A stretch of 55,459 nucleotides of DNA from positions 1 through 55,459 of the IMG/VR virus record IMGVR_UViG_3300047476_000267; one strand, given 5' to 3'. This document shows positions 15,320-47,650 of the stretch, piece by piece (the stretch's first letter is position 1; every line of letters starts with the position of its first letter). The position numbers and the translations under genes were made by a program. The notes beneath the pieces are model-generated. The model had not been told where the DNA came from. It made no database searches and saw only the letters and a program-made list of their open reading frames with translations. This stretch comes from a virus (Duplodnaviria; Caudoviricetes).

Positions 15320-18300
15320 ATGGCGACTAAGCCTGAGAACGTCAACCCGTTTGCGAAATACGTTGAACAATCAGGCGAAGAAGCCCCTCCAGAAAATCCG
15401 TTTGCCAAATATCTACAGCCAGAAGAACCAAGCCAACTACTAGACCCAGCCAAAATGATTGCAGCTGGGGCTATTGGCCCTACAGCTGCCATTCCTCTAG
15501 GTCTAGAGTCATCAGTCCGTAACATCCCCCGTCAGGTCGTAGAGCAACAGGCTGTAACTCCTGTTGAAAAGGTTGGCCCATTAACATTTGCTGAGGAACT
15601 GGTCAGAAAAGGTCCAGCCCAGTTGCTTGTTAATACCGCTAGAGCTTTCATCAAAAACGCTACGGGCGAGTCCTTTGAGAAGCAACAGGAGCGCCAAAAG
15701 CAAGACGAGATTGCTGTCGACCGTGCCATCTCAAACCTACCGAGAGTTCCAGGGCTATCTCAGCTGGCAGAAGCTGGCGAAAAAGTATCTGGCAAACTGC
15801 GTGAGAGCGTATCCACGGCTGGTAAACAGGCAATTGCCGACTCTCAGATTGAGGGTAATTTATTAGAAGCTATCCAGAACCAGAATATCGACAACCTATC
15901 CTTTGGTAAAAACCCATCTTTCATGGGTTATGCCTTACAGGGATCTCAGGTTCTTGGCTCGTTAGCCCCAATCATCGGCACAGCCATTATGACTAAGGGC
16001 AGCTCCAAAGCTGTCGGTACAGTCGGTTTTGGTATGGGTGCTGGTGAGGCAGTCCAAGACGCCCAGCAATACATCTCCAAGCTCAGTGATGAAGAGTTAA
16101 TGGCAAACAGCCCGTACTTCAAGAAGATGGTTGAAGACGGGGTCAATCCAGCAGAAGCCCGTAAGGTAGTCACTGACAAAGCGGCTGAGTATGCAGCCCA
16201 GCTACAGGGTTCTGTATCGGCATTTGGTAGCGTTATCACTGGTAAGTTAATCACTGGTCAGTTCGACAAGCTGATGACTGGTCCAGTCAAGAATCGCTTA
16301 GGTCGTATAGCACTCGGTACTACAGCTGGCGCAGCAGAGGAAGGCACACAGGAGTTCCTAGAAGGTATCGCCAAGGACTTGGGTATTAACAAATCTGTTA
16401 TCAAAGAGATCGGCGAAGAGTCTTTTGCTAACTTTGTTCTCGGTGCAATTGGTGGTGCTGGTCCAGGTGCGTATCGTGGCGCAGTGGCTAAGACAAAGGA
16501 AGAGGCTGAGGCGGCAGCTAAAAAGCCAACCAGAGAACAAGTTGATGCCCAGATGCGCTTGGCACTTGGCGAAGAAGGTGTGCCTCCAGCAGTTCCACCA
16601 GCAGCTGTAACGCCACCCATTACACCAGCTCCTACTCCAGCAGAGCCAGCAGCCGAGCCAGCGTTAGAGGAAGAGATTGTTCAGCCTACGCCTCGTGCAG
16701 TCGCTCCTACCCCCATGCTATTGCAGACCGCTGGATTGCCTCCACAAGTCGCAGATCAGGTTCAAAACTTAGAAAGTCAGTTCCAATTAATTGAACAACG
16801 CAAGCTCGATCCCAACCTGACAAACGAAGAAGCAGAGATATTCCAAGAACGTCAGAACCTTATTCAGCAGCAGATTGCCCAGCTAATCCAAGCTCCAGCG
16901 CCTGAGATTCAAGCGCCAGCTATTGCAGAAGCTCCTCCAATTGACGAAGAGTTGCTTGCTGACATTCAAGAGCGTGGTGAGCCTATTGAATCCCGCATGG
17001 ATGCAGAACAGCGCCTATCGAATGGCGAACAGATCTATGCCTTCCCTGAGCAAGACGAAGGGCGCCCAACGCCAATTACTAGCGTAGATCAGCTGGCAGC
17101 CTACACGCCAGATCAGATGATGGCGTTGCCATCCGTAGCTCCAGTTGCCGAAGAGGTAGTGCGTGAGCCAGAGGTAGCTGCACCGCCAGTTGAAGAAGCT
17201 GCGCCAACAGAAGCACCAGCATTGACTCAGGCTGAGATCAACCAGCAACGCCAAGCAGAAAGACGTGCAGCTGCTGAGGCTGGTACAAAACCGCTTCCTG
17301 AAGAGCCAGAGGCAATGCTCAAGCGTCAAAAAGGATATGAAGAGGCTAGGGCTAAATATGCCGCTGATATGGATCCAATGTTTGTTTATAAAGCGCTTGA
17401 ACTTGCTGATAGAGATCTAGAAATGAGAGAAGAAGCTCTTCCAGAATTAAGAAAAATGGAAGAGATGGGTTTAATCAAAATAAAAAAGGGTAAACGTAAA
17501 TCCTTTTATCTTGGACAGGGAGCAAAAGAAGCTGGTTTAACTAATGAACTGTCTTTCTCTGGCTATCAAGATGTAGTTAATTATCTTTCTGCAAAGCCAA
17601 AAACAATCGTTGAGCTTCCCAAGAAAGAAGAAGCGCCAGCTATCAAGGTCACGCCCAATAAGATCTTTACTGAGGATGCCGCTACCAAGGCACGCAATCG
17701 CCTACGTTCCAAACTCAATCAGCTGAACTCTGGCATAGATCCTGAGTTCTTGATTGATGGCGTAACCCTATCTGGCTACCACATTGAGAAGGGTGCTCGT
17801 ACCTTTGCAGCCTACGCTAAGGCGATGATTGCTGACCTTGGCGATAAGGTTAGACCTTATCTCAAGTCTTGGTACATGGCTGTCAAGTTTGATCCACGCT
17901 CGGCTGAGTTTTCCAAAGAGATGGATGATGAGGCTACCGTAGACAAATACAAAGATGAAGAAACAACAAGCATCGCCGATCCAGACGTCAAGTTCAAGGT
18001 TGCCGAGGATATCTCCAAATACTTCTTGGCAGATGGTAGCTTCAAAGATATCGTAGAAGCCCGTAAGTTCATCAGCAACATCACCAAACAAAAGATTGAG
18101 CCTGGCACAGCTGAGGCTAAAGAGGCAGATGAGGCCATCGAAGTTGGTGTAGTCTTGGCTGCTCGAAAGATTGCAGCACGCAATAAGCCAGCCGATCAGA
18201 TATATGATGACTTGGTAGATCTATACAACCGACAGCCAAATCTATCTGTTCGCTCTTCAACCAGCATTAAAGAGCAAGCCTATTCCACCCCAGCACCTTT

Positions 18301-21300
18301 GGCGTATGTTGCATCACAGTTGGCAGATATCAATAAGGACACCACGGTATACGAGCCAACCGCTGGTAACGGCATGCTGTTGATTAATGCAAACCCTAAG
18401 AATGTCATAGCTAATGAACTTAATGGCACTCGCCTTGAGATGCTCAAGCGTGTATTGCCTGGTGCAGAAGTAGTTAACAAAAACGCTCTTAGTTTCGATC
18501 CAACCCTTTCTGATCGTGTTATTGCCAACCCGCCATTTGGTGCTATTGGCGAAGAAGTTACTGTAGCTGGGAATAAGACAAGAGAGATTGACCATGCGAT
18601 TGCTTATAAGGCATTAGGTCGCATGCCAGTTAATGGCAGAGCAGTGCTAATTGTTGGCGGTGTTCTTGGAGATTCAAACGAGAAGAGAGTAGATGGCTAC
18701 CGTTCTGCGCAAAAACGTAACTTCTATTTCAACCTCTACAAAAAATACAACGTAGTTGACCATTTCTCCGTAGCTGGAGATATGTATAAGAAACAGGGAG
18801 CTGCCTACCCTGTCGATGTAATTGTGATTGCTGGCAAAGGTGGCGAATCAATCGACCTACCAGCTGCCAATTTGCCAAAAGTCTATAGCTCGTATGAGCA
18901 ATTAAAGGAGAAGCTAGATGAAGCTAGTCGCATGGTATCCAGAGGGGCTGAGCGCCCCGCCAGAGCTGACATCGGTGAAGCTGCCGTTGGGGAAGGTGAA
19001 CCACAAGCAGTGGGTCGAGGCGCTGTCCGACCGAGTGAGCCAGCTGGCGCAGAGCGAGCCAGACCCGAAAGAGGCGAGCCTACAGGCGTGTCGGCTGCTA
19101 GACCTACCCCTAGAGGACAACCCAGTGGAGCTAGGGCAGAACCTCGTGCAGAACAACCTAAACCTACTGACGTATCTGAACGTGGCAGAGTTGAAGGAAA
19201 ACCCGTTCCAAGAGGTGAAGGAGAGCAACCCGCTGGCAGAAGAGGCGCTGAAGAACGTAGACCTAGCGAGCTGGGTGGAATTAGCGTTGTCTCAGGTGAG
19301 CGAGTCAAGTCTGGACTCGTAGAGCGTAGAGGCGAGGAAGTCGAGACCGAGCAACAGGCAACCTACGAACCTAAATCTCAGGCCACATCCGTTGGTACAT
19401 TAGTGCCACGGGCTATGCGTGACTCCATCGAGCAGTCTCTCCAGAAGGTTGAGAACGAGATGGGTAACCTTGATGAATACGTGGCTGATAACCTAGGCAT
19501 GGATTTGGAGACCTTGCGTGAGGACTTCTCCGCAGAACAAGTTGATGCTTTAGCACTAGCCATCCGTAACGCTGAGGCTGGTAAGGGTTTCATTATTGGC
19601 GACCAGACTGGTATTGGTAAAGGTCGTGTTGTGGCTGCCATGATTAAGTTTGCTATCAAGAACGGCAAGATCCCAATCTTTGTTACTGAGAAGCCAAACC
19701 TTTACTCTGACATGATTCGAGATCTAGACGATATTGGCATGACCAAAGAGTTAGCGCTTGACACAAACAGACCAAAGGTATTTATCACCAATGGTGGTGA
19801 GTCTATCCCCTATCAGCTACTCCGCAAAAAGGGTGACGAGGTAGAGGAAATTAACCTTACCCTGAAAGCTCCCAAGTCAGGCAAAGCGCTTGACGGCATG
19901 ATGGAAGAGATGCGCAACAAGGACAGCATCGGTGATTACAAGGTCATCTTTACTACCTACAGCCAGCTCCAGAACGTCAAGGGCAAGGACACAGAACGCC
20001 AAAAGTTCATTAGTAACTTTGGCATGGATAACTACATGATTTTTGATGAGTCGCACAACGCTGGTGGCGGTGGCGAAACTCAAGCAAGAACCAAGGATCA
20101 AAGAGAAGCAGCCAAGAAAGGCGAGAGTCTTAGCACTGGTCGTGCTGGTTTCGTACGTAATCTAGTACGTAATGCCTTTGGAACATTCTTCTCATCGGCT
20201 ACCTACGCCAAACGCCCAGATGTGATGGACTTGTATTCCAGCACAAACATGATGCTGGCAGTAGATAAGCCAGCGGAGTTAGCAGAAGCGATTAAGCGTG
20301 GCGGTGTGCCGATGCAGCAGATTGTGGCAACCATGCTGACCAAAGATGGTCAATATATTCGCAGAGAGAGAACTTTTGCTGGCGTAGCTTACAACACTGT
20401 AGACACAGCGGTAGACAAACAAACTGCTGAAAACATGGCAACAGCTATGCGTGAGATCCTTTCGTTCTCTCGCTCCAAGGACATTGTCCTTAAGCAGATG
20501 CAGAAACAGTTTGATAAAGAAGCCAAAATGGTTTCTGAGGTCGGTGGTGAAAAAACAACAGTTCAGGGTGCTAACTTTGGATCTGTGATGCACAACCTGA
20601 TTGACCAGATGCTCTTGTCATTGAAGGCAAAGGACTCTGTTAATCATGCTATCAATCGCCTCAAAGCTGGCGAGAAGGTAGTAATGACTGTATCCAATAC
20701 CATGGGCTCGTTCTTACAGAGCTACGCTGAGGACATGGGCATCGAGGTAGGCGGTAAGGTAGATCTCTCGTTTGCTGACCTGTATGTCCGCTATCTGGAT
20801 AAGCAGCTGATGATTACCATCAAATCACCTGATGGCACAAAGAAACAGCGCAAGCTAACACCAGATGAGCTTGGTCCTACATTGATGGCACGCTACAACC
20901 AGATTCGCCAGCAGATCGAGAACTCAGGCTTTGGATCAGCGCCCATCTCGCCTATCGACTATATGCACAATGAGTTGCGTAAGGCTGGATACAAGACCGA
21001 TGAGATTACTGGCAGAACCATTACTCTGAACTACGCTACTGGGGAGCCAATCTTAACTAGCCGTTCAGCCAATATCCGTCAGCGGGTTAATGCAGTGCGT
21101 GGCTTTAACAGCGGTGACACAGACGTCATCATCCTGAACCAAGCTGGATCTACTGGACTATCGTTGCATGCAAGCAACAAGGTCAAAGACCAGCGCAAGC
21201 GTCATATGTTGATCGTTCAGCCAGAGAAGAATATCGACACCCATATGCAGATGCTTGGGCGTGTTCACAGAACAGGTCAGGTAGTCACCCCATCCTACTC

Positions 21301-24300
21301 TCAGATGATGGCTGACATCCCAGCGGAGATGCGCCCAGCTGCGGTATTGCTCAAGAAGATGGCATCTCTGAACGCCAACACTACGGCATCCCGTAAGTCT
21401 GCGGTGACAGCTGAGGGCGTGGTCGACTTTATGAATGACTACGGCGGTCAAGTAGCCCAAGAGTATCTACGGGATAACCCAGAGATTCACGAGGCGCTTG
21501 GCGGTGACAAGATGCTGGCGATTGCTGAGGACACCAACGAAGCCCTAGAAGCCGACATTCGCAGATTCACTGGCTACATTCCTATACTTCCGCTTGCCCA
21601 ACAGGAAGAAGTCTATGCTGACCTGATTGATCGCTACAACGAGTTGCTTGAGCGTGAGAACAGCATGGGCACGAATAAGCTCGAAGCCAAGGCAGTAGAC
21701 CTTGATGCTGAAACTCTGTCGATTGAGCCAATCAGCGAAGACAAAGGCGAGGACTCAATCTTCTCTGCACCAGCGTTTATGGAGCGTGTAGACGTCAAAC
21801 GCACTGTTAAGCCATATAGCAGCCAAGAAGTTAATCAGATGATTACTGAGAATCTTGGCGGTAAGACAAATGGCGTTCTTGCTAGAGAGATGATCTCTGA
21901 GTTTGATGAGCGTGAGACCAAGTTCGCTAGAGAAAGACTGGCAGCGCTCAGAGAGAAAGAGACCGATCAAGTCAAGATCGAGACCCAGCAGTCGCAACAG
22001 CGCTTACTGGCTGACAAGATCCGTTCTGTCTTGCAGAATCTCAAGATTGGCATGCCTGTCACCATCAAAGACAAGAACGGCATGTATGTATTCGGTGTCA
22101 TTACCGATATTAAAAACACCAAGCGCACAGTCAATCCAGCCTCTGGCTCCGACTGGAAGATGACTCTGGCTATTGCCAACGGTGATTCCAGAAGCCTGAC
22201 CCTGAACTTCTCGCAGATCGGCACGAACTACACCCTTGAGGAGTCGACTGAGGTTAACTACCTGAACCCAGAGACCCAGCAAGGCGAGTGGACTAAGATC
22301 ATCGACATCTTTGACAAGGGCGCAACAGTACGGCGTGAGAAGCGCTGGATGATTACTGGCAACATCTTGGCTGGCTTTGCCCAGTATCCAGGACAGATCC
22401 TCAGCTACACCAAGAACGATGGCACTACTGGTCAGGGCATCCTATTGCCCCGCCAGTTCAATTTTGAGGAAGAGAAGAAACGGGCTGATGTCCGTCTCAA
22501 GACCCCAGATGACATGCTCAAGTTCCTTGATGAGCTCAACGGCACGATAGCCAGCGATGACAATATCCTACGCATTACCAAGCGTGGCGATACCTACATG
22601 GTCTCTGTGCCGTCTAACAAGCGTTCTGGTGGCGAATACTTCCTAGATGAGAATCTTAAGTCAATCCTAGGCAAGGACTTCTACAAGCGTGGCTCGGATA
22701 TGATTAACTACACCCGCAGCCCACAAGAGTTCAAAGAAGCCATGGACTACTTGATGAAGGAGAAGGAGCAGTTCTTCAAGGCAATTACCCGCCAAGACGA
22801 AGCTCGTAAGATGTTTGGACCCAAAGAGGTTCAAGACATCGCTGGCGTTACCCAAAAGCGTGTGGATACCCGTAAGGATGAGATCCGTGCCGAGCAGATC
22901 AAAGAACAGGCTCGCCTAAGCCGTGCGATTACCGCCAAGCTCAAGAAGGTTATTGAGGGTAATGTAGACCTCAATATCCAGCGTGATCTGACTTATCTCA
23001 AGAAAGCCAAAGAAGATATGAAGGCAGAGCTGGCTAAGACCAAGCCAGCCCGTGTATCGCCACAGTGGATTCGCACCAGAGCATCGGCAGAGAACGCTGC
23101 TGGCAATCTATCTGATGAGGCATACCAAGTTGTAGAGATGCTGGCTAATCGTTTCCCAGGAGTTCTGGATGGACTGAGACTATCTGTCCGCACAACCAAG
23201 GGCGAGGCCACTGGTAACTTTAATCCCATGAATCGGTTGATTACTGTATTCAAGGAAGGCGCTACCCAAGACCGCACCATGCGCCATGAGATTGCTCATT
23301 CGTTAGAGCAGATGATGACCCCAGAGGCTCAGATGGCTGTGGTCGAGGCATGGGGTAATGCTCTATCTAAAGCGATTGAGGACAACACCGACAAGGTATC
23401 TCAGGACTATTTCAATGCCGTGCTGGATTACATCAACAATCCAACCGCTGAGACCCAGAAGAAGGCTACTGATCTGATGCCAGATTACAGCTTCTACCAG
23501 TATCTCAACCCATCGGAATATTGGGCAGTCAACGCTGAGCCATTAATGAAGGCATCGCTAGGCAGCGCATGGCAGCGCTTTACCAAGGCAGTCAGCAAGA
23601 TCCTAGAGGCTATCAAGTCTGTGATTGGCTTAAACAACAAGTATGCTGTGCATCGTGAGTTTGACCGCATCATGTCTGGCAAGCAAGACCGCATGACCCG
23701 TAAGATGTTGGTCGAGTACGTAACCGACAACGCCGATGCCTTGAAGTTCCTCAATAACGTAGAGGACTTTGATAAGCGCTTTGAGGAAGATGGACTAAAC
23801 CACACCCCAGTCAAGCCAAGCCGTAACGTTAAAGACATGCTGCTCGGTGGATTCCGTGGTGCAAAACAGATCTACAACGACACTCTAAACTCGCCTCTCA
23901 TGGCAGCTCAGGCGATGGGTGGCAAGATTGCCCGTGCCGTAACTTATGCCCGTAATAAGAACATCTGGTTTGGTGCTGGTTTGGAGATGGCTGATCTGGC
24001 GATGCAGAAAGCCAAAGGATTAGATGGTTTACTGCGTGATGGAGAGATGCGTGCTGTTGCCTCGATTGCAGTCACCAACGCCTTGCATGCTGGTCACGTA
24101 GCCTCTGAGGTCATTATCCGTGGCGCACTGGCGTTTAACGAGAAGACCCAGATGTTCCAAGCCATTAGACGCCCATTCTCGATGGCTAACGTATTGCTGG
24201 CTAAGCATGACTTGATTGAGCGTGTAGGCTTGCAACGGGCTACTGACATGGTCAACACCTTCTTTGAAGCCAAGCGTTCTAAGAGCATCATGGATGAGTT

Positions 24301-26566
24301 CAAGGCTCGTGAACAGGAGCTGAATGATCTAAACGCTGAGATGCGTGATCCAAGGACTATGCCACAGCGTCAAGCCGCCTTGCTCGATGAGATCCTACAA
24401 GCCGAGAAGGGCTTGCGGATGATTAACATCGCCAAGAAGAAGGTGCGCTTTACCGAAGACCAGATCGACTTCTACGGCAACCTTGAGAAAGACAACAAAG
24501 AGTTGCGCACCATGCTCGATAACTGGACTAAGGTCAACGACAACATGATCGACATGATGTTGTTTAGCAAGATCATTAGCAAGAAGCGTGCAGAGCAGCT
24601 CAAGAAAATCAAGGACTATGTGCCCTGGTATCGCATCAAGGATGACATGGAAGACGTGCATACCGACTCCAAGCTGGGTGGTGTTAAGCGCCTAACCAAT
24701 GTCGGCAAAGAGAAACGCTTTGAGGATACGGTAGTCGTTCAGGACATTGACGATATCGTGGATAACATGCTCCACAACGTAGGCATGATTACTCGTAACT
24801 CCATGCGTAACTACGCCGCCAACCGTGTAGCTCAGGAGTATGCAACCCGCAACAGCCGTGGTCAGATCCGTGTATTCCCAGAAGAGGGTCGCACGCCAGA
24901 TGGCGCAGTACGTACCAACATCCTCGTCAATGGTCGCAGAATCATTGTTGAGATCAAAGATCCGCTAATCGCTGAGGCAGTGTTGGGCATGGAGAACATC
25001 AACATGCCAGCTTTAGAGATGCTCAGCATGCTGGCTAACGGCTTGCGTAGGGGTGTTACCACATGGCCTACCTTCCAGATTCGCCAGTTGTTTATGGATG
25101 CGCCAACCGCAGCCTTGGTCACTGGGTTGAAAGACCCAACCAAAGTCTGGGCTGGCACGTTCCGTGGCTTTATCAAGGCTCTCCAATCGGATGATCCTGT
25201 GGTCGATATGCTCAAGTCCTACGGTATTGGTGGCTATCAGTCTTACACCAGAACCCCAGAGATCGAATACAAGAAGCAGATCGGCTTATTGGAAAAGAAC
25301 AAGTTTGATTCTCTGATGGCTTTCTTGGATAAGGTTGGTGACTCCTCAGACTACGCTCAGCGTATCTCGATCTACAACCGCACCCTGAAAGAGACTGGCG
25401 ATGAGATGCTGGCGATTATGAACGCCAACAATGTGATCGACTTCCTTAAGCGTGGTAGCGCAAGGCACGCCCAGTTCTTGACCAAGACTGTATCGTTTAT
25501 GAACGCCTACGCCCAGCAGCTTGATGTCCTGGTGATGGCTCTTATGGGTAAGCGTATGCTCGGCAAGTCTCGTCAGGCAGCCTTAGCGCAGTTGGCTAAG
25601 ACCGCAGCGACCTTTGGAACTTATGTATTGCTGTATAGCTGGATGGTTGGTGACGATGACGAATACCAGCAGTTGGATGACCAGACCAAAGTCCGCAACA
25701 TCTTTTTATCGAAGAACTGGACTGGCTTGGATCAGAACATCCTACTGCCAATGCACACCTCTGCCAGCTTTATGTTCAAGTCCATCCCTGAGTTGACCTA
25801 TAACTACATCGTCAATAAAGGTACGGACAATGAGATGGATGCCAAGCGCCTACGCACCGCCCTGTCTGAGGCTGCGATGGATTCCTTGCTTGGTCCAAAC
25901 CCAGTGCCTACTGGTGTCAAGCCAGCCATTGAGATCATCCTCAACAAGAACTTCTTTACGGGCAGCACAGTCGTACCCCGTGGCATGGAAGACTTGGATG
26001 CAGCCGAGCAATACACTGCTACGACATCCGAGTTCGGTAAGGTTCTCAGTGCCTTGACTGGATTGCCGTTCACAGACAAGCGGGTATTAAACCCAATCGA
26101 GGCAGATCACTTGGTTCGGGGTATGTTTGGAACCACAGGATCCGCAGTCCAGTGGCTATCTAACCTATTCTCAGAAGACCGCCCAGCACCACGGGCTAAG
26201 GACAATCCACTGTATGGCTCATTCATTACGGCTGATGTACCCCGTGGTCGTGAGGATCTGTTCTATGACTTCAAGGGCATCGTAGATAACCGCTACGAAA
26301 CCTTTATGAAGCTCTTGGAGCGTGGCAAGGATAAACAGGCTGATGAGTACTACGACAAGTACAGCGACCTGATTGCCTCCCGTGATTACGTAGTGGGCAT
26401 GGAAGCTGCGCTACGGGATATCAACCGCCAGATTAGAAACATTGGTGAGATCAAGGACAAGGACTTCACGCCTGAGCAGCGCAGACAGGAGATCACGGAC
26501 TTACAGCGCCAGAAGAACGATATCTTGGATGGCATTATCCAGATGCGTTTAGACGCTGGACTGTAA
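15320..26566 (+). CDS. Giant polyvalent ejection protein (DarB-like): N6-adenine methyltransferase + Strawberry-notch SF2 helicase + zincin + LPD38-like C-terminus
   Basis: YSTPAPLA/EPTAGNG/IANPPF (about 18280-18540); DQTGIGKGR, FDESH, SSATYA, GSTGLSLHA, QMLGRVHRTGQ (about 19600-21280); HEIAH...EYW (about 23285-23525). Confidence 0.85.
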   Translation: MATKPENVNPFAKYVEQSGEEAPPENPFAKYLQPEEPSQLLDPAKMIAAGAIGPTAAIPLGLESSVRNIPRQVVEQQAVTPVEKVGPLTFAEELVRKGPAQLLVNTARAFIKNATGESFEKQQERQKQDEIAVDRAISNLPRVPGLSQLAEAGEKVSGKLRESVSTAGKQAIADSQIEGNLLEAIQNQNIDNLSFGKNPSFMGYALQGSQVLGSLAPIIGTAIMTKGSSKAVGTVGFGMGAGEAVQDAQQYISKLSDEELMANSPYFKKMVEDGVNPAEARKVVTDKAAEYAAQLQGSVSAFGSVITGKLITGQFDKLMTGPVKNRLGRIALGTTAGAAEEGTQEFLEGIAKDLGINKSVIKEIGEESFANFVLGAIGGAGPGAYRGAVAKTKEEAEAAAKKPTREQVDAQMRLALGEEGVPPAVPPAAVTPPITPAPTPAEPAAEPALEEEIVQPTPRAVAPTPMLLQTAGLPPQVADQVQNLESQFQLIEQRKLDPNLTNEEAEIFQERQNLIQQQIAQLIQAPAPEIQAPAIAEAPPIDEELLADIQERGEPIESRMDAEQRLSNGEQIYAFPEQDEGRPTPITSVDQLAAYTPDQMMALPSVAPVAEEVVREPEVAAPPVEEAAPTEAPALTQAEINQQRQAERRAAAEAGTKPLPEEPEAMLKRQKGYEEARAKYAADMDPMFVYKALELADRDLEMREEALPELRKMEEMGLIKIKKGKRKSFYLGQGAKEAGLTNELSFSGYQDVVNYLSAKPKTIVELPKKEEAPAIKVTPNKIFTEDAATKARNRLRSKLNQLNSGIDPEFLIDGVTLSGYHIEKGARTFAAYAKAMIADLGDKVRPYLKSWYMAVKFDPRSAEFSKEMDDEATVDKYKDEETTSIADPDVKFKVAEDISKYFLADGSFKDIVEARKFISNITKQKIEPGTAEAKEADEAIEVGVVLAARKIAARNKPADQIYDDLVDLYNRQPNLSVRSSTSIKEQAYSTPAPLAYVASQLADINKDTTVYEPTAGNGMLLINANPKNVIANELNGTRLEMLKRVLPGAEVVNKNALSFDPTLSDRVIANPPFGAIGEEVTVAGNKTREIDHAIAYKALGRMPVNGRAVLIVGGVLGDSNEKRVDGYRSAQKRNFYFNLYKKYNVVDHFSVAGDMYKKQGAAYPVDVIVIAGKGGESIDLPAANLPKVYSSYEQLKEKLDEASRMVSRGAERPARADIGEAAVGEGEPQAVGRGAVRPSEPAGAERARPERGEPTGVSAARPTPRGQPSGARAEPRAEQPKPTDVSERGRVEGKPVPRGEGEQPAGRRGAEERRPSELGGISVVSGERVKSGLVERRGEEVETEQQATYEPKSQATSVGTLVPRAMRDSIEQSLQKVENEMGNLDEYVADNLGMDLETLREDFSAEQVDALALAIRNAEAGKGFIIGDQTGIGKGRVVAAMIKFAIKNGKIPIFVTEKPNLYSDMIRDLDDIGMTKELALDTNRPKVFITNGGESIPYQLLRKKGDEVEEINLTLKAPKSGKALDGMMEEMRNKDSIGDYKVIFTTYSQLQNVKGKDTERQKFISNFGMDNYMIFDESHNAGGGGETQARTKDQREAAKKGESLSTGRAGFVRNLVRNAFGTFFSSATYAKRPDVMDLYSSTNMMLAVDKPAELAEAIKRGGVPMQQIVATMLTKDGQYIRRERTFAGVAYNTVDTAVDKQTAENMATAMREILSFSRSKDIVLKQMQKQFDKEAKMVSEVGGEKTTVQGANFGSVMHNLIDQMLLSLKAKDSVNHAINRLKAGEKVVMTVSNTMGSFLQSYAEDMGIEVGGKVDLSFADLYVRYLDKQLMITIKSPDGTKKQRKLTPDELGPTLMARYNQIRQQIENSGFGSAPISPIDYMHNELRKAGYKTDEITGRTITLNYATGEPILTSRSANIRQRVNAVRGFNSGDTDVIILNQAGSTGLSLHASNKVKDQRKRHMLIVQPEKNIDTHMQMLGRVHRTGQVVTPSYSQMMADIPAEMRPAAVLLKKMASLNANTTASRKSAVTAEGVVDFMNDYGGQVAQEYLRDNPEIHEALGGDKMLAIAEDTNEALEADIRRFTGYIPILPLAQQEEVYADLIDRYNELLERENSMGTNKLEAKAVDLDAETLSIEPISEDKGEDSIFSAPAFMERVDVKRTVKPYSSQEVNQMITENLGGKTNGVLAREMISEFDERETKFARERLAALREKETDQVKIETQQSQQRLLADKIRSVLQNLKIGMPVTIKDKNGMYVFGVITDIKNTKRTVNPASGSDWKMTLAIANGDSRSLTLNFSQIGTNYTLEESTEVNYLNPETQQGEWTKIIDIFDKGATVRREKRWMITGNILAGFAQYPGQILSYTKNDGTTGQGILLPRQFNFEEEKKRADVRLKTPDDMLKFLDELNGTIASDDNILRITKRGDTYMVSVPSNKRSGGEYFLDENLKSILGKDFYKRGSDMINYTRSPQEFKEAMDYLMKEKEQFFKAITRQDEARKMFGPKEVQDIAGVTQKRVDTRKDEIRAEQIKEQARLSRAITAKLKKVIEGNVDLNIQRDLTYLKKAKEDMKAELAKTKPARVSPQWIRTRASAENAAGNLSDEAYQVVEMLANRFPGVLDGLRLSVRTTKGEATGNFNPMNRLITVFKEGATQDRTMRHEIAHSLEQMMTPEAQMAVVEAWGNALSKAIEDNTDKVSQDYFNAVLDYINNPTAETQKKATDLMPDYSFYQYLNPSEYWAVNAEPLMKASLGSAWQRFTKAVSKILEAIKSVIGLNNKYAVHREFDRIMSGKQDRMTRKMLVEYVTDNADALKFLNNVEDFDKRFEEDGLNHTPVKPSRNVKDMLLGGFRGAKQIYNDTLNSPLMAAQAMGGKIARAVTYARNKNIWFGAGLEMADLAMQKAKGLDGLLRDGEMRAVASIAVTNALHAGHVASEVIIRGALAFNEKTQMFQAIRRPFSMANVLLAKHDLIERVGLQRATDMVNTFFEAKRSKSIMDEFKAREQELNDLNAEMRDPRTMPQRQAALLDEILQAEKGLRMINIAKKKVRFTEDQIDFYGNLEKDNKELRTMLDNWTKVNDNMIDMMLFSKIISKKRAEQLKKIKDYVPWYRIKDDMEDVHTDSKLGGVKRLTNVGKEKRFEDTVVVQDIDDIVDNMLHNVGMITRNSMRNYAANRVAQEYATRNSRGQIRVFPEEGRTPDGAVRTNILVNGRRIIVEIKDPLIAEAVLGMENINMPALEMLSMLANGLRRGVTTWPTFQIRQLFMDAPTAALVTGLKDPTKVWAGTFRGFIKALQSDDPVVDMLKSYGIGGYQSYTRTPEIEYKKQIGLLEKNKFDSLMAFLDKVGDSSDYAQRISIYNRTLKETGDEMLAIMNANNVIDFLKRGSARHAQFLTKTVSFMNAYAQQLDVLVMALMGKRMLGKSRQAALAQLAKTAATFGTYVLLYSWMVGDDDEYQQLDDQTKVRNIFLSKNWTGLDQNILLPMHTSASFMFKSIPELTYNYIVNKGTDNEMDAKRLRTALSEAAMDSLLGPNPVPTGVKPAIEIILNKNFFTGSTVVPRGMEDLDAAEQYTATTSEFGKVLSALTGLPFTDKRVLNPIEADHLVRGMFGTTGSAVQWLSNLFSEDRPAPRAKDNPLYGSFITADVPRGREDLFYDFKGIVDNRYETFMKLLERGKDKQADEYYDKYSDLIASRDYVVGMEAALRDINRQIRNIGEIKDKDFTPEQRRQEITDLQRQKNDILDGIIQMRLDAGL

Positions 26567-36581: not shown

Positions 36582-36699
36582 ACCAGCCCACACTGGTATC
36601 GCACGATAAATCTCCTAGCAGAGACTTGTGCAATGCAAGCCCAACGGTGACACACTCACCTCAAACCCCCAGGCTCACACTCCTGGGGGTTTTTCTTTT
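36582..36699 (+). ncRNA. Candidate trans-acting antisense (anti-RBS) small RNA
   Basis: Bounded by promoter and terminator; four hairpins; AAUCUCCUAGCAG and UCACACUCCU are complementary to repeated phage RBSs. Confidence 0.65.
36663..36699 (+). terminator. Intrinsic terminator
   Basis: AAACCCCCAGG/CCTGGGGGTTT stem followed by TTCTTTT. Confidence 0.85.
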
Positions 36700-36808: not shown

Positions 36809-37000
36809 AGCTACACCGCATAGGTCGGATTCTTTAACGACAGCTATTCGGGAAGATGCTCCTACTGTGGGATAAGACTTGAAACAGGAGCAGAGATGGC
36901 GAAGCCAGAGTCTCTAGTCGAACGTCTGGCGGGTGCAGTGGCTCCAGAAAGCAACTGTTGAAGGCATCTAGGATAGGCTAGGTGCGTTCACCAAAAAGCA
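36809..37000 (+). ncRNA. Candidate multi-stem structured RNA
   Basis: Nested stems TGCTCCT/AGGAGCA, GAGA-TGGC/GCCA-TCTC, CAGT/ACTG, GCATCTAG/CTAGGTGC; no long ORF. Confidence 0.5.
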
Positions 37001-44707: not shown

Positions 44708-45187
44708 TCACCAACTGGCTTGATAGTAAAACTCATACTGATCTTCGGGCAGTGATTCCAGAGCATTGGTAATGCCCTCAACAGTCCTTTTCAGATCATC
44801 CCAATACCATTCATCTTTTTCGTATGTTCCGAAAAATGGGCCTTGCATTGGCTCTAAATCCTCATCCCTTTCGGCATCAGGATTCTCAAGAATGTCTTTG
44901 CACAAGTCCCGCAACTCCACCAGTTTCTCTCTCGGCACATAGGATTGCTGACACTCATCCACCCCGCCCTGACAGTTTTCCACGAACCACCCATGAATAG
45001 CGTTTGCTTTTCGCCAATACATAGCATCCACCGATACTTCCTTGACCACAAGGCTCGATCCCGCAAAGCGTTTTTCAGGATTACCATCAACCCCAATCAT
45101 TTCATTGACCTTTTGAGATATTTCCTTGTCCTCGTCTCGGTGAGACGAAAGATATCTCTTGGCAGTTAAATACATATCTAATCCCAT
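44708..45187 (-). CDS. Hypothetical protein (MGLDMYL family)
   Basis: YWRKANAIHGWF, FFG..E.DEWY, YYQASW. Confidence 0.7.
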   Translation of the reverse strand: MGLDMYLTAKRYLSSHRDEDKEISQKVNEMIGVDGNPEKRFAGSSLVVKEVSVDAMYWRKANAIHGWFVENCQGGVDECQQSYVPREKLVELRDLCKDILENPDAERDEDLEPMQGPFFGTYEKDEWYWDDLKRTVEGITNALESLPEDQYEFYYQASW

Positions 45188-45213
45188 AACATTCTCCTAG
45201 CAGTTAAAAAGTT

Positions 45214-45270
45214 ATTGATTGCCGAATGACAATCCTTATGCCCTCACACAAGGGCATAAAGGTATCACTC
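45214..45270 (-). ncRNA. Intergenic two-hairpin RNA motif, copy A
   Basis: GAGUGAUACCU-hairpin-GGAUUGUC/GGCAAUC; homologous to 47104-47163. Confidence 0.55.
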
Positions 45271-45520
45271 AGGGCATCACTGGCAAACAGGATTGATTAT
45301 CATCACTGGTAAACAATGCACCCCCACCATTCCCCTCATCATCACGACTGGGGAAGAACCAAAGACCATCTTCGGTTTGAAAAGCGATTGACCTTTCATA
45401 CCAACCCATCTGATCCCTTTCTTCCTTTGTCATGTATCGCACATCAACGATCCGTTTATTGAGCAACAGTTTCTTGGCAACCACATTCCAATACTTGTCG
45501 TAATCTTTAATTTCTTCCAT
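45269..45520 (-). CDS. Hypothetical protein
   Basis: PSRDDEGNGGGALF motif; GGGGAG RBS. Confidence 0.65.
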   Translation of the reverse strand: MEEIKDYDKYWNVVAKKLLLNKRIVDVRYMTKEERDQMGWYERSIAFQTEDGLWFFPSRDDEGNGGGALFTSDDNQSCLPVMP

Positions 45521-45529
45521 CACACTCCC

Positions 45530-45607
45530 CTAGTTAAATACAACGATTGCAGACCACACCACATATGCAACATACGCTAAACAAATAGCCAGTATCCAGT
45601 CCCACAT
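45530..45607 (-). CDS. Single-TM peptide (25 aa)
   Basis: MWDWILAICLAYVAYVVWSAIVVFN; TAATG coupling. Confidence 0.4.
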   Translation of the reverse strand: MWDWILAICLAYVAYVVWSAIVVFN

Positions 45608-46095
45608 TAGAAAATCCTTCCGTTTTCATCAAACTCATAATTGTTGATTTCCATCATTTCCTCGACTGCTTCATCTGAGTAGTGATATTCAATGTCCCGA
45701 TTGATAGCGATCAGTGCAGACTCCAATGCCTGATGAAAGGCATACATGGCATCACCAGTTTTCTTAAATTCCTCAAAGAATGACTGGATCATGGTGCAGT
45801 CCAACCACATACCTGATTTGGGCAAATACCCAGTTTTGGCTAGTTTCTTGGCATCTTCCAAGGTGAACCCTCTGAAATGATGGTTTTCAACATCAGTCTT
45901 TAGAAATTCACCCCGCCCACCAATCGACCAGTCTTTCAAAGTAATCCCAAAATGCTCACAGAAGGCTTTGATTGAATCAATGTTCTCCTGATGCCAAGGG
46001 TAGTCCATGCCATTGATATACCAGTCTTTAGCCCTTTGCTTTGCTTTACCATCTAACTCAGAGTATTTGTAGATTGATAATTCAGCAACTCTCAT
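45607..46095 (-). CDS. Hypothetical protein
   Basis: YKYSEL..KAKQRAKDW...SDEAVEEM..N.YEFDENG pattern of mobile-element proteins. Confidence 0.65.
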   Translation of the reverse strand: MRVAELSIYKYSELDGKAKQRAKDWYINGMDYPWHQENIDSIKAFCEHFGITLKDWSIGGRGEFLKTDVENHHFRGFTLEDAKKLAKTGYLPKSGMWLDCTMIQSFFEEFKKTGDAMYAFHQALESALIAINRDIEYHYSDEAVEEMMEINNYEFDENGRIF

Positions 46096-46115
46096 TTCTA
46101 TCTCCTAGCAGTTTT

Positions 46116-46209
46116 GACAAAGACCCAGTGCAATTTGCGGACTCATGCAATAAAGCAATTTGCGGACTCATGCACTGGGTTTCGACTATTCAAGTCTCAT
46201 CAGTTTGCC
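46116..46209 (-). ncRNA. Type I hammerhead ribozyme
   Basis: GGCAAA-CUGAUGA-GACU(UGAAU)AGUC-GAAA-CCCAGUGCA...UGCACUGGG-UC^UUUGUC; all core nucleotides and three stems present. Confidence 0.9.
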
Positions 46210-46394
46210 TAGTAATCCTCATTCTCTTCCCACAAGCGGGGATCAATCAGTCTTTGCCCGAAAGCATTGAACAACTGTCCACAATCACAGGCAATGTCTT
46301 CACCTGAACCATCCGAGCAGACCTCACGATTGCAGTCGCATTTCCACACACGCAGTAGAACCCGACCAGTGTCTTCATCAAATTCAACTCGCAT
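46209..46394 (-). CDS. Small Cys-rich hypothetical protein
   Basis: CDC...CDCGQLFNAFGQRL. Confidence 0.6.
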   Translation of the reverse strand: MRVEFDEDTGRVLLRVWKCDCNREVCSDGSGEDIACDCGQLFNAFGQRLIDPRLWEENEDY

Positions 46395-46705
46395 TATTCG
46401 AACTCCTCAGGAACGATCACATCAAACTTACGCAACAACTCAATGGCTTTATCAGACAGGCTCATTACTCCGTCATAATCGGTCAGTGTGCGAACTCCAA
46501 CAGGATCAATAGAGAACCACAAACCAATGTATTCAAACTTATCCAGTGTAGGAATATCCCACTCGATAAACCCAGTAGCGTCATCATGGAAATACAACTC
46601 CATTGTGGATTCGTGTGTGCCTAAGTCTCTCTCGCCCCATGATCCCTCAAGGATCAAAGGGCAATTAAACTCGGCACGACCAACAAAAAAGGTTTGGTGT
46701 GCCAT
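46394..46705 (-). CDS. Hypothetical protein
   Basis: GGAG RBS; TAATG coupling. Confidence 0.6.
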   Translation of the reverse strand: MAHQTFFVGRAEFNCPLILEGSWGERDLGTHESTMELYFHDDATGFIEWDIPTLDKFEYIGLWFSIDPVGVRTLTDYDGVMSLSDKAIELLRKFDVIVPEEFE

Positions 46706-46709
46706 GATT

Positions 46710-47084
46710 TCAATACTCCGAAGTGAGCATCAAAACATTGTCGGTCAGGAAGAACTTGTATTCACCAACTGGGCAGTCGGTGTATTCAATGATCTTCTTT
46801 GCCAACAGTTCACAATCACCATCTTCAACTACGATCATTGCATTGTTGTCATCCTGATTACTTCCAACGATCAGCGTAATGCTGATGAATGGCTCTTTCT
46901 TGAGCAGTGGAAAATACTCAGTCGCAACGATATCCAAGAACCAGTAAGCACCATTACCCGCATTCTCAGCAAAGTATTGAACCCCATCAGTATGGTGCAG
47001 ACCTTTTGCAAACATGGGATTGGTTTGATAGTAATTCGCAGTCCCAATAAATTGGGATAAATCTAAAGTGGTAGTCGAATCCAA
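46710..47084 (-). CDS. DUF6876-like protein
   Basis: LSQFIGTANYY, TDGVQY.AE...AYWFLD, YTDCP, LMLTSEY; TTG start after CTAGGAG. Confidence 0.65.
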   Translation of the reverse strand: MDSTTTLDLSQFIGTANYYQTNPMFAKGLHHTDGVQYFAENAGNGAYWFLDIVATEYFPLLKKEPFISITLIVGSNQDDNNAMIVVEDGDCELLAKKIIEYTDCPVGEYKFFLTDNVLMLTSEY

Positions 47085-47103
47085 TTTAATCTCCTAGCAG
47101 TTA

Positions 47104-47163
47104 TGATTATCGGGATTGATAATCCGTAAACCCACGCAGTGCATGGGCTTACAGGTATCACTC
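47104..47163 (-). ncRNA. Intergenic two-hairpin RNA motif, copy B
   Basis: GAGUGAUACCU-hairpin-GGAUUAUC/GAUAAUC; compensatory changes relative to copy A. Confidence 0.55.
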
Positions 47164-47547: not shown

Positions 47548-47599
47548 TTCTATCTCCTAGCAGTTTGGTAGTCGAATTAGGTGTTTAGCACCTACCGAC

Positions 47600-47650
47600 A
47601 TTATAGCGAAGAAAGAAATAAGAACACAATACTTTTTTGAAAATAATTTT
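47600..47650 (-). promoter_or_regulatory. Early-type sigma70 promoter with UP-like element
   Basis: TTGTGT-18 bp-TATAAT preceded by A/T tracts. Confidence 0.65.

Follow-up and report, generated by a model that had tools for sequence, protein, structure and literature searches.

Hammerhead ribozymes flank prophage genes, and the passages of PMC3088659 devoted to them report that three arrays cleave in vitro and one in E. coli. The role proposed for such ribozymes by Perreault et al. 2011 is the cutting of long phage transcripts into gene-length mRNAs (PMC3088659, section on phage genes). In the haloviruses HF1 and HF2, the same source, where it deals with these viruses, places a mapped 5′ end within 3 nt of a hammerhead site that itself lies 13 nt before a start codon (PMC3088659). 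Two Rfam families come close to the ribozyme analyzed here: RF00163 (Hammerhead_1), which has the ribozyme class and the permutation (open stem I) in common with it, and RF03152 (RAGATH-1 hammerhead), which is likewise of type I and whose consensus, CUGAUGAGACU...CGAAAC...GUC, fits the core and stem II of the phage copies, whereas the 5′ hairpin of the RF03152 model is not matched by them. A protein-dependent counterpart is found in phage T7, in which RNase III sites between the early genes cut the polycistronic mRNA and leave a 3′ hairpin on the upstream RNA; those sites need a host enzyme, whereas a hammerhead cuts itself.

In this study, a type I hammerhead motif was analyzed in an uncultured phage represented by an IMG/VR record of 55,459 bp with an estimated completeness of 88 %; this whole stretch of DNA is referred to as the window, and the DNA runs containing the phage are labelled freshwater metagenomes. 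Like the clustered prophage and phage hammerheads treated in PMC3088659, the window copy has a canonical core and an intergenic position among co-directional small phage genes. The tandem arrays tested in that paper belong to the genomes of Clostridium scindens, Azorhizobium and Agrobacterium (PMC3088659). The present copy belongs to an uncultured phage, and the subclass of which it is part differs from them in being type I; its stem I has 6 bp and is flanked by A at −1 and +1, and its stem II is GACU/AGUC. Members of this subclass may already figure in the supplementary alignments of PMC3088659. With the HHphage hammerhead of HF1/HF2, which lies in an early polycistronic transcript, the window copy shares a position few nucleotides before a start codon; however, HHphage, as presented in the halovirus section, belongs to an archaeal virus, has a variant core with insertions near C3 and has a mapped 5′ end (PMC3088659), whereas the window core is canonical and its cleavage site is predicted from the sequence. 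The window ribozyme is a new but ordinary member of a familiar class, and its setting is well known too.

The hammerhead motif and its predicted cleavage site

The motif sits inside a 113-nt gap that separates two ORFs, of 61 and 162 aa, in a leftward operon of small genes. The features of this locus are given below.

46209..46394, minus strand: upstream ORF of 61 aa, a four-cysteine protein of unknown function (phrog_3207) with 20 IMG/VR relatives
46116..46209, minus strand: type I hammerhead, whole motif of 94 nt, from the sequence, the MFE junction, the motif scan and model R1
46204..46209, minus strand: stem I 5′ strand GGCAAA, pairing with UUUGUC in 6 bp including one G-U
46197..46203, minus strand: core C3 U4 G5 A6 U7 G8 A9 (CUGAUGA), from the sequence
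46196-46193 / 46187-46184, minus strand: stem II GACU/AGUC, 4 bp, with loop UGAAU; the whole hairpin is 46184..46196
46181..46183, minus strand: core G12 A13 A14, from the sequence
46123..46180, minus strand: stem III including its insert; A15.1-U16.1 is A46180-U46123
46180-46171 / 46132-46123, minus strand: outer helix of stem III, A-CCCAGUGC-A / U-GCACUGGG-U, 10 bp
46122, minus strand: C17, from the hammerhead consensus applied to the sequence; predicted scissile bond 46122/46121
46116..46121, minus strand: stem I 3′ strand UUUGUC, predicted 5′-OH end of the downstream RNA
46096..46115, minus strand: leader AAAACUGCUAGGAGAUAGAA with the RBS motif CUGCUAGGAG at 46102-46111, from the sequence
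45607..46095, minus strand: downstream ORF of 162 aa, unknown function (phrog_10310), AUG at 46095-46093

The preliminary description had placed a type I hammerhead on the minus strand at 46116..46209, directly after a stop codon, with stem I GGCAAA/UUUGUC, stem II GACU/AGUC, a stem III and the core, and every one of these elements was found there. In detail, all core positions agree with the consensus that defines the class (CUGAUGA, GAA, the A46180-U46123 pair and C46122), and three helices surround the junction with stem I open and stems II and III closed, the arrangement of type I. The final G of the stop codon UAG of the 61-aa ORF (46211-46209) doubles as the first base of stem I. Since C17 is 46122 by the consensus, the scissile bond is predicted between 46122 and 46121, the position also named in the preliminary description, and the downstream RNA is predicted to start with UUUGUCAAAACUGCUAGGAGAUAGAAAUG. 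Its new 5′ end would lie 10 nt from the RBS motif CUGCUAGGAG (46111-46102), in agreement with the distance of about 10 nt put forward before, and 26 nt from the AUG.

The MFE fold of 46215-46110 obtained with RNAfold was a three-way junction of −28.1 kcal/mol (z −2.0), and 7 of 200 shuffles folded as well. In the MFE fold of a 191-nt context, the stem I 3′ strand and C17 paired with GGCAAAG (46252-46258, minus strand) inside the 61-aa ORF in place of the true 5′ strand; this alternative fold had a frequency of 0.0007 and a z of 0.03, and the pairing may compete with the active fold or be meaningless. Our own type I scan, with CUGANGA, GAA and H17 required and lenient limits on the stems, identified one site in the window, 46116..46209 (minus strand), and in first-order Markov shuffles of the window any lenient match appeared in 11 of 300 and a match as strong in 0 of 300.

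A covariance model, R1, of 53 positions and 16 pairs was derived from 84 unique phage hammerheads, the window being left out. With filters off, it scored 46116-46209 (minus strand) at 60.1 bits (E 7.6e-17); the runner-up in the window was a non-hammerhead of 15.5 bits, and the window holds one hammerhead by this model. In the 84-row alignment 98 % of cells were paired, a percentage that is partly built in because the rows were preselected by a pairing scan, which does not hold for the diversity of pair types: both sides changed in 13 of the 16 pairs. The covariation score of the alignment was 0.68, compared with 0.04-0.10 for slid partners, and was unreached by a 500-shuffle control. The model and the conservation with covariation described below thus agree with the assignment read from the sequence.

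The leftward block consists of small ORFs without a known function and extends from about 47550 to 43600, between primase/helicase genes and a divergent terminase block, and the order primase/helicase, small ORFs, terminase is kept in ten related contigs; the gene order suggests that the operon is early. A blastn search of the hammerhead locus against 50,697 GenBank phage records gave zero matches. Within the window, exact copies of CUGCUAGGAG occur five times on the minus strand (36612-36621, 45194-45203, 46102-46111, 47091-47100 and 47554-47563), all of them just 5′ of minus-strand ORFs, and 9 matches were counted with one mismatch allowed, vs. 3.25 expected; CUGCUAGGAG is a leader/RBS common to the gene block. 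Upstream of the first ORF of the block (47564-47640, minus strand), a perfect TATAAT with a weak −35 (TTGTGT) was read by eye, followed downstream by the hairpin GGUAGGUGCUAAACACCUAAUUCGACUACC and then the shared RBS; this TATAAT is absent from the list of a consensus promoter scan. Elsewhere in the window, a single ORF of 3,748 aa (15320-26566, plus strand) has weak matches to virion RNA polymerase, to DarB-like antirestriction and lysozyme-type domains and to a methyltransferase, and its product looks like a giant ejected virion protein.

A Betaproteobacteria-1 RNA (RF02932) was observed at 36814-36934 (plus strand) with 86.8 bits (gathering score 49.4), and copies of 98-100 bits were observed in four of the five related contigs tested. 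It had been claimed previously that a small RNA targets the RBS downstream of the hammerhead. The modelled duplex between the Betaproteobacteria-1 RNA and the leader reached −23.8 kcal/mol, compared with a shuffled mean of −17.1, and was equalled by 8 of 500 shuffles, which weakly favors that claim.

Conservation in relatives and the phage type I subclass

Relatives were collected through the 61-aa upstream protein alone, which yielded 20 IMG/VR loci. A type I hammerhead was found within about 190 nt downstream of the 61-aa gene in 19 of them, either directly after this gene or past one extra small ORF, and was absent solely from L145. Stem I among these relatives was GGCAAA/UUUGUC, GACAAA/UUUGUC or GUCAAA/UUUGAC, and stem II was GACU/AGUC or GCCC/GGGC; the sequence of stem III varied in nearly every lineage with its pairing retained. 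With relatives found by other routes included, stem I also occurs as AUCAAA/UUUGAU and stem II as GUCC/GGAC and GGGG/CCCC. In the canonical cores, N7 was U, A, C or G and all other positions were fixed. Compensatory helix changes around a fixed core, which characterize the hammerhead class, are present in 19 of the 20 syntenic relatives. Several hammerhead copies per operon were found in relatives. One extra U between A9 and G10.1 was observed in two hammerheads, those of L128 (~1003-1106) and L185 (585-678, minus strand), with all stems kept and G at N7 in one of the two; L185 is a contig bearing the stem III module described below and was found separately via the repeat pattern, not via the 61-aa protein.

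A pattern made of the core and stem II, with 20 fixed bases and no demand on stems I and III, was found at more than 122 IMG/VR loci, and in 112 of the 122 loci among the matches listed, stem I (5 bp or more) and stem III (4 bp or more) were present as well. The same pattern was found at 4 loci in a set of one genome per prokaryote species. The subclass is abundant in uncultured phage contigs and rare in bacterial genomes. Among 99 unique subclass hammerheads, stem I was exactly 6 bp in 92, preceded by A (−1) in 95 and followed by A (+1) in 87; an upstream ORF ended no more than 45 nt away in 81, in many cases with one base common to the ORF and stem I, and a downstream ORF started within 70 nt in 78, at a median of 25.5 nt. 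All these traits are matched by the window copy, with its 6-bp stem I, A at −1 and +1, and nearby stop and start. Loop II of the subclass is near U-N-A-A-U, and that of the window copy agrees; a tertiary contact between stem I and loop II is needed for fast hammerhead cleavage.

The Rfam hammerhead models, which the preliminary description had proposed as a check, gave a negative result both at gathering scores and at E up to 10. At gathering scores, the sole match in the whole window was the Betaproteobacteria-1 RNA and a hammerhead was absent, and at E up to 10 the region 45950-46400 gave two snoRNA-type noise matches and no hammerhead. Neither RF00163 nor RF03152 matched the window copy even at E up to 10, the miss by RF00163 being likely due to the length of the stem III insert and the shortness of stem I. 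On three relatives' loci tested at E up to 10, the best RF00163 score was 17.4 bits vs. a gathering score of 34 bits. For the compact relatives, RF03152 was the best family, with 35.3, 35.1, 24.4 and 22.7 bits (E up to 10), and its scores on relatives ranged over 19.7-35.3 bits, far below the gathering score of 56.3. Further, at gathering scores none of 15 relatives' loci with short textbook hammerheads was matched. Because compact canonical relatives are missed as well, the negative Rfam result reflects the models, not the RNA; and since the Rfam models miss the subclass, annotation pipelines under-count it. The main text of PMC5737381 mentions neither RAGATH-1 nor Betaproteobacteria-1.

The stem III module and the two-hairpin elements

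The interior of stem III in the window copy holds a module with the following parts.

46133..46170, minus strand: stem III module of 38 nt, two identical strands UGAGUCCGCAAAU facing each other
46170-46158 and 46145-46133, minus strand: the repeat strands UGAGUCCGCAAAU, a direct repeat predicted to form a symmetric internal loop
46157-46155 with 46148-46146, minus strand: inner hairpin of 3 bp in the predicted fold, with loop 46154-46149

Within this interior UGCAUGAGUCCGCAAAUUGC is present twice, and folding predicts a two-fold symmetric internal loop with GAGUCCGCAAA on each strand. The predicted order is outer stem III, GAGUCCGCAAA, an inner hairpin of 2-4 bp, GAGUCCGCAAA and outer stem III again, and this architecture was identical in all four variants folded. 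A 16-mer of the repeat was absent elsewhere in the window on both strands with up to 3 mismatches. In IMG/VR, the 15-mer AUGAGUCCGCAAAUU was found at 47 loci, 41 with a single and 6 with a double match; all 6 double matches (24-25 nt apart) lie in the stem III of a type I hammerhead, and the 41 single matches lie in unrelated sequence without a hammerhead, their number being close to a rough chance estimate. In metagenomes, the 11-mer occurred twice at 26 loci, of which 5 were hammerheads, including two new scaffolds, and the rest were unrelated tandem repeats. The paired repeat was found in 8 distinct hammerhead scaffolds, which differ in all three stems; since the 11-mer served as the search query, its invariance is in part a product of the search. 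Across the 8 scaffolds, the five outer pairs adjoining the loop all changed on both sides with 100 % of cells paired, double changes were found in 10 of the 14 pairs of the 8 module-bearing rows, and the covariation values observed for these rows were unreached by any 500-shuffle control.

Other internally repeated inserts were found at the module position in L126, L134-136 and L128. A keyword search of the open-access literature turned up no account of such a conserved module; the symmetric loop of stem III is a structural variant that is new to us and may already be in print. No tRNA genes were found in the window. Several other identities were considered for the stem III sequence and rejected. 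The terminator scan lists no terminator at the hammerhead, and a sigma-70 or sigma-54 promoter, a k-turn, a sarcin-ricin/loop E motif, a hairpin-ribozyme loop A and a CRISPR-repeat-like sequence were set aside by eye.

The other two structured gaps of the operon hold two-hairpin elements, not hammerheads.

45217-45268 and 47101-47157, minus strand: two-hairpin element, a helix of ~11 bp with a bulged U, then one of 7 bp

The element has UGAUAC on its 5′ side and the RBS CUGCUAGGAG on its 3′ side, and both of its helices show compensatory changes among relatives. Rfam gave nothing on it at gathering scores, and at E up to 10 only noise in 45150-45320. Conservation covers about 18 stacked base pairs and not the loops, for which reason the element may resemble an RNase III-type site or a stabilizer more than a ribozyme; by analogy, the two-hairpin elements would seem closer to the T7 RNase III sites than the hammerhead is. 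In three related contigs (G001, G002 and G005), hammerheads fill exactly both two-hairpin slots, one of them with the stem III module, and these hammerheads precede the same RBS and homologues of the DUF6876 and 159-aa genes. This positional exchange argues for a similar job of the two elements.

Predicted processing of the transcript and alternative explanations

These results indicate that the minus-strand segment 46209-46116 is probably a functional type I hammerhead that self-cleaves the transcript of the leftward small genes. From the sequence and from hammerhead chemistry, we infer the following course of cleavage, end chemistry and consequence for the mRNA. Once transcribed, the three-way junction would fold and C17 (46122) would be cut through internal transesterification. 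The upstream RNA would end in a 2′,3′-cyclic phosphate immediately after the long hairpin of stem III, with the module remaining on its 3′ end, and the downstream RNA would start with a 5′-OH at 46121 and a short leader, 10 nt before CUGCUAGGAG. The two halves of the polycistronic message would thereby be uncoupled in stability and translation. The preliminary description had the transcript process itself into units. The one hammerhead supports the processing, as read from the sequence; the many units were not borne out, as the transcript would be cut in two, and with a single hammerhead in the window, processing at the other gene junctions is unaccounted for.

Among the 24 runs found to hold the phage, one was a metatranscriptome. 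It gave three contigs, 45770-45944, 45947-46097 and 46773-46979, at 100 % identity and none of them over the ribozyme; the nearest ends at 46097, not at the cleavage site, and contigs cannot show RNA ends. These RNA contigs neither support nor weaken cleavage.

Two explanations would make cleavage absent or incidental. If the motif had arisen by chance or were a copy that has decayed and lost activity, the failure of Rfam to match it and the lack of an observed RNA end, the site being outside the contigs, would be accounted for; but this is extremely improbable given that no shuffle of 300 was as strong, that the independent model gave an E of 7.6e-17, and that the full consensus core is present and the hammerhead is kept in 19 of 20 syntenic relatives. 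The hammerhead and its RBS could instead be kept mainly as a DNA-level linker for gene exchange by homologous recombination, with cleavage incidental. This would fit the arrangement 3′ of the cut, where the relatives have UUUGUC or UUUGAC, then AAA(A)CU(CU)GCUAGGAG and then the gene: the AAA(A)CUGCUAGGAG leader follows the hammerhead in all 19 relatives having one, and the one cassette so formed precedes five different genes. It would also fit L002 and L003, in which 94 %-identical relatives of the 162-aa ORF sit behind another gene without a hammerhead between, and the related DNA in other runs that skips or replaces the stem III interior, with joints from 46121/46125 to 46178/46179. However, a linker requires sequence identity, not pairing, and the stems show compensatory substitutions. 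Together with the fixed catalytic core, these changes point to selection on the RNA, and we consider the linker explanation very unlikely.

A further proposal concerns the module and is held only tentatively, as rather unlikely: the symmetric loop GAGUCCGCAAA/GAGUCCGCAAA might serve as a binding site for a small ligand, another RNA or a dimeric protein, and the binding would then gate cleavage or mark the upstream 3′ end. It draws on the paired repeat being kept in 8 scaffolds with covarying adjoining pairs, on the confinement of the IMG/VR repeat pairs to hammerhead stem III (6/6), on the fold common to the 4 variants and on the different repeated inserts at the equal position (L126, L134-136). 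Gating by the module is doubted because the outer helix is 10 bp, so that stem III should form independently of a ligand and allosteric gating would be left without an obvious lever. Nor did a partner emerge: tblastn of 363 window ORFs of at least 40 aa against 6 module-bearing and 4 module-free contigs identified no ORF specific to the module-bearing contigs, and the Betaproteobacteria-1 RNA was nearly identical across phages with different inserts, showed no covariation with insert type and formed a duplex with the repeat that was no better than shuffles (228/500). The module has no Rfam family match, and, as noted, the constancy of its 11-mer owes something to the search itself. The 38-nt module could also alter hammerhead folding unpredictably. 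That the loop is a binding domain for control in trans, which with the slot swaps would make these elements modular, interchangeable mRNA-processing cassettes, is accordingly doubtful in our estimate; if it were true, natural hammerheads with a partner acting in trans would be a novelty.

Self-cleavage of the small-gene transcript by the type I hammerhead is the explanation retained here. Phage hammerheads between genes have been known since 2011, and this locus gives three ways of approaching what they do for the phage. If the points on the subclass, the slot swap and the loop fail, it is one more ordinary phage hammerhead. The Rfam thresholds miss an abundant phage type I subclass. The swap of hammerheads and two-hairpin elements before one leader is a natural experiment, and it points to mRNA processing or stabilization as their common job.
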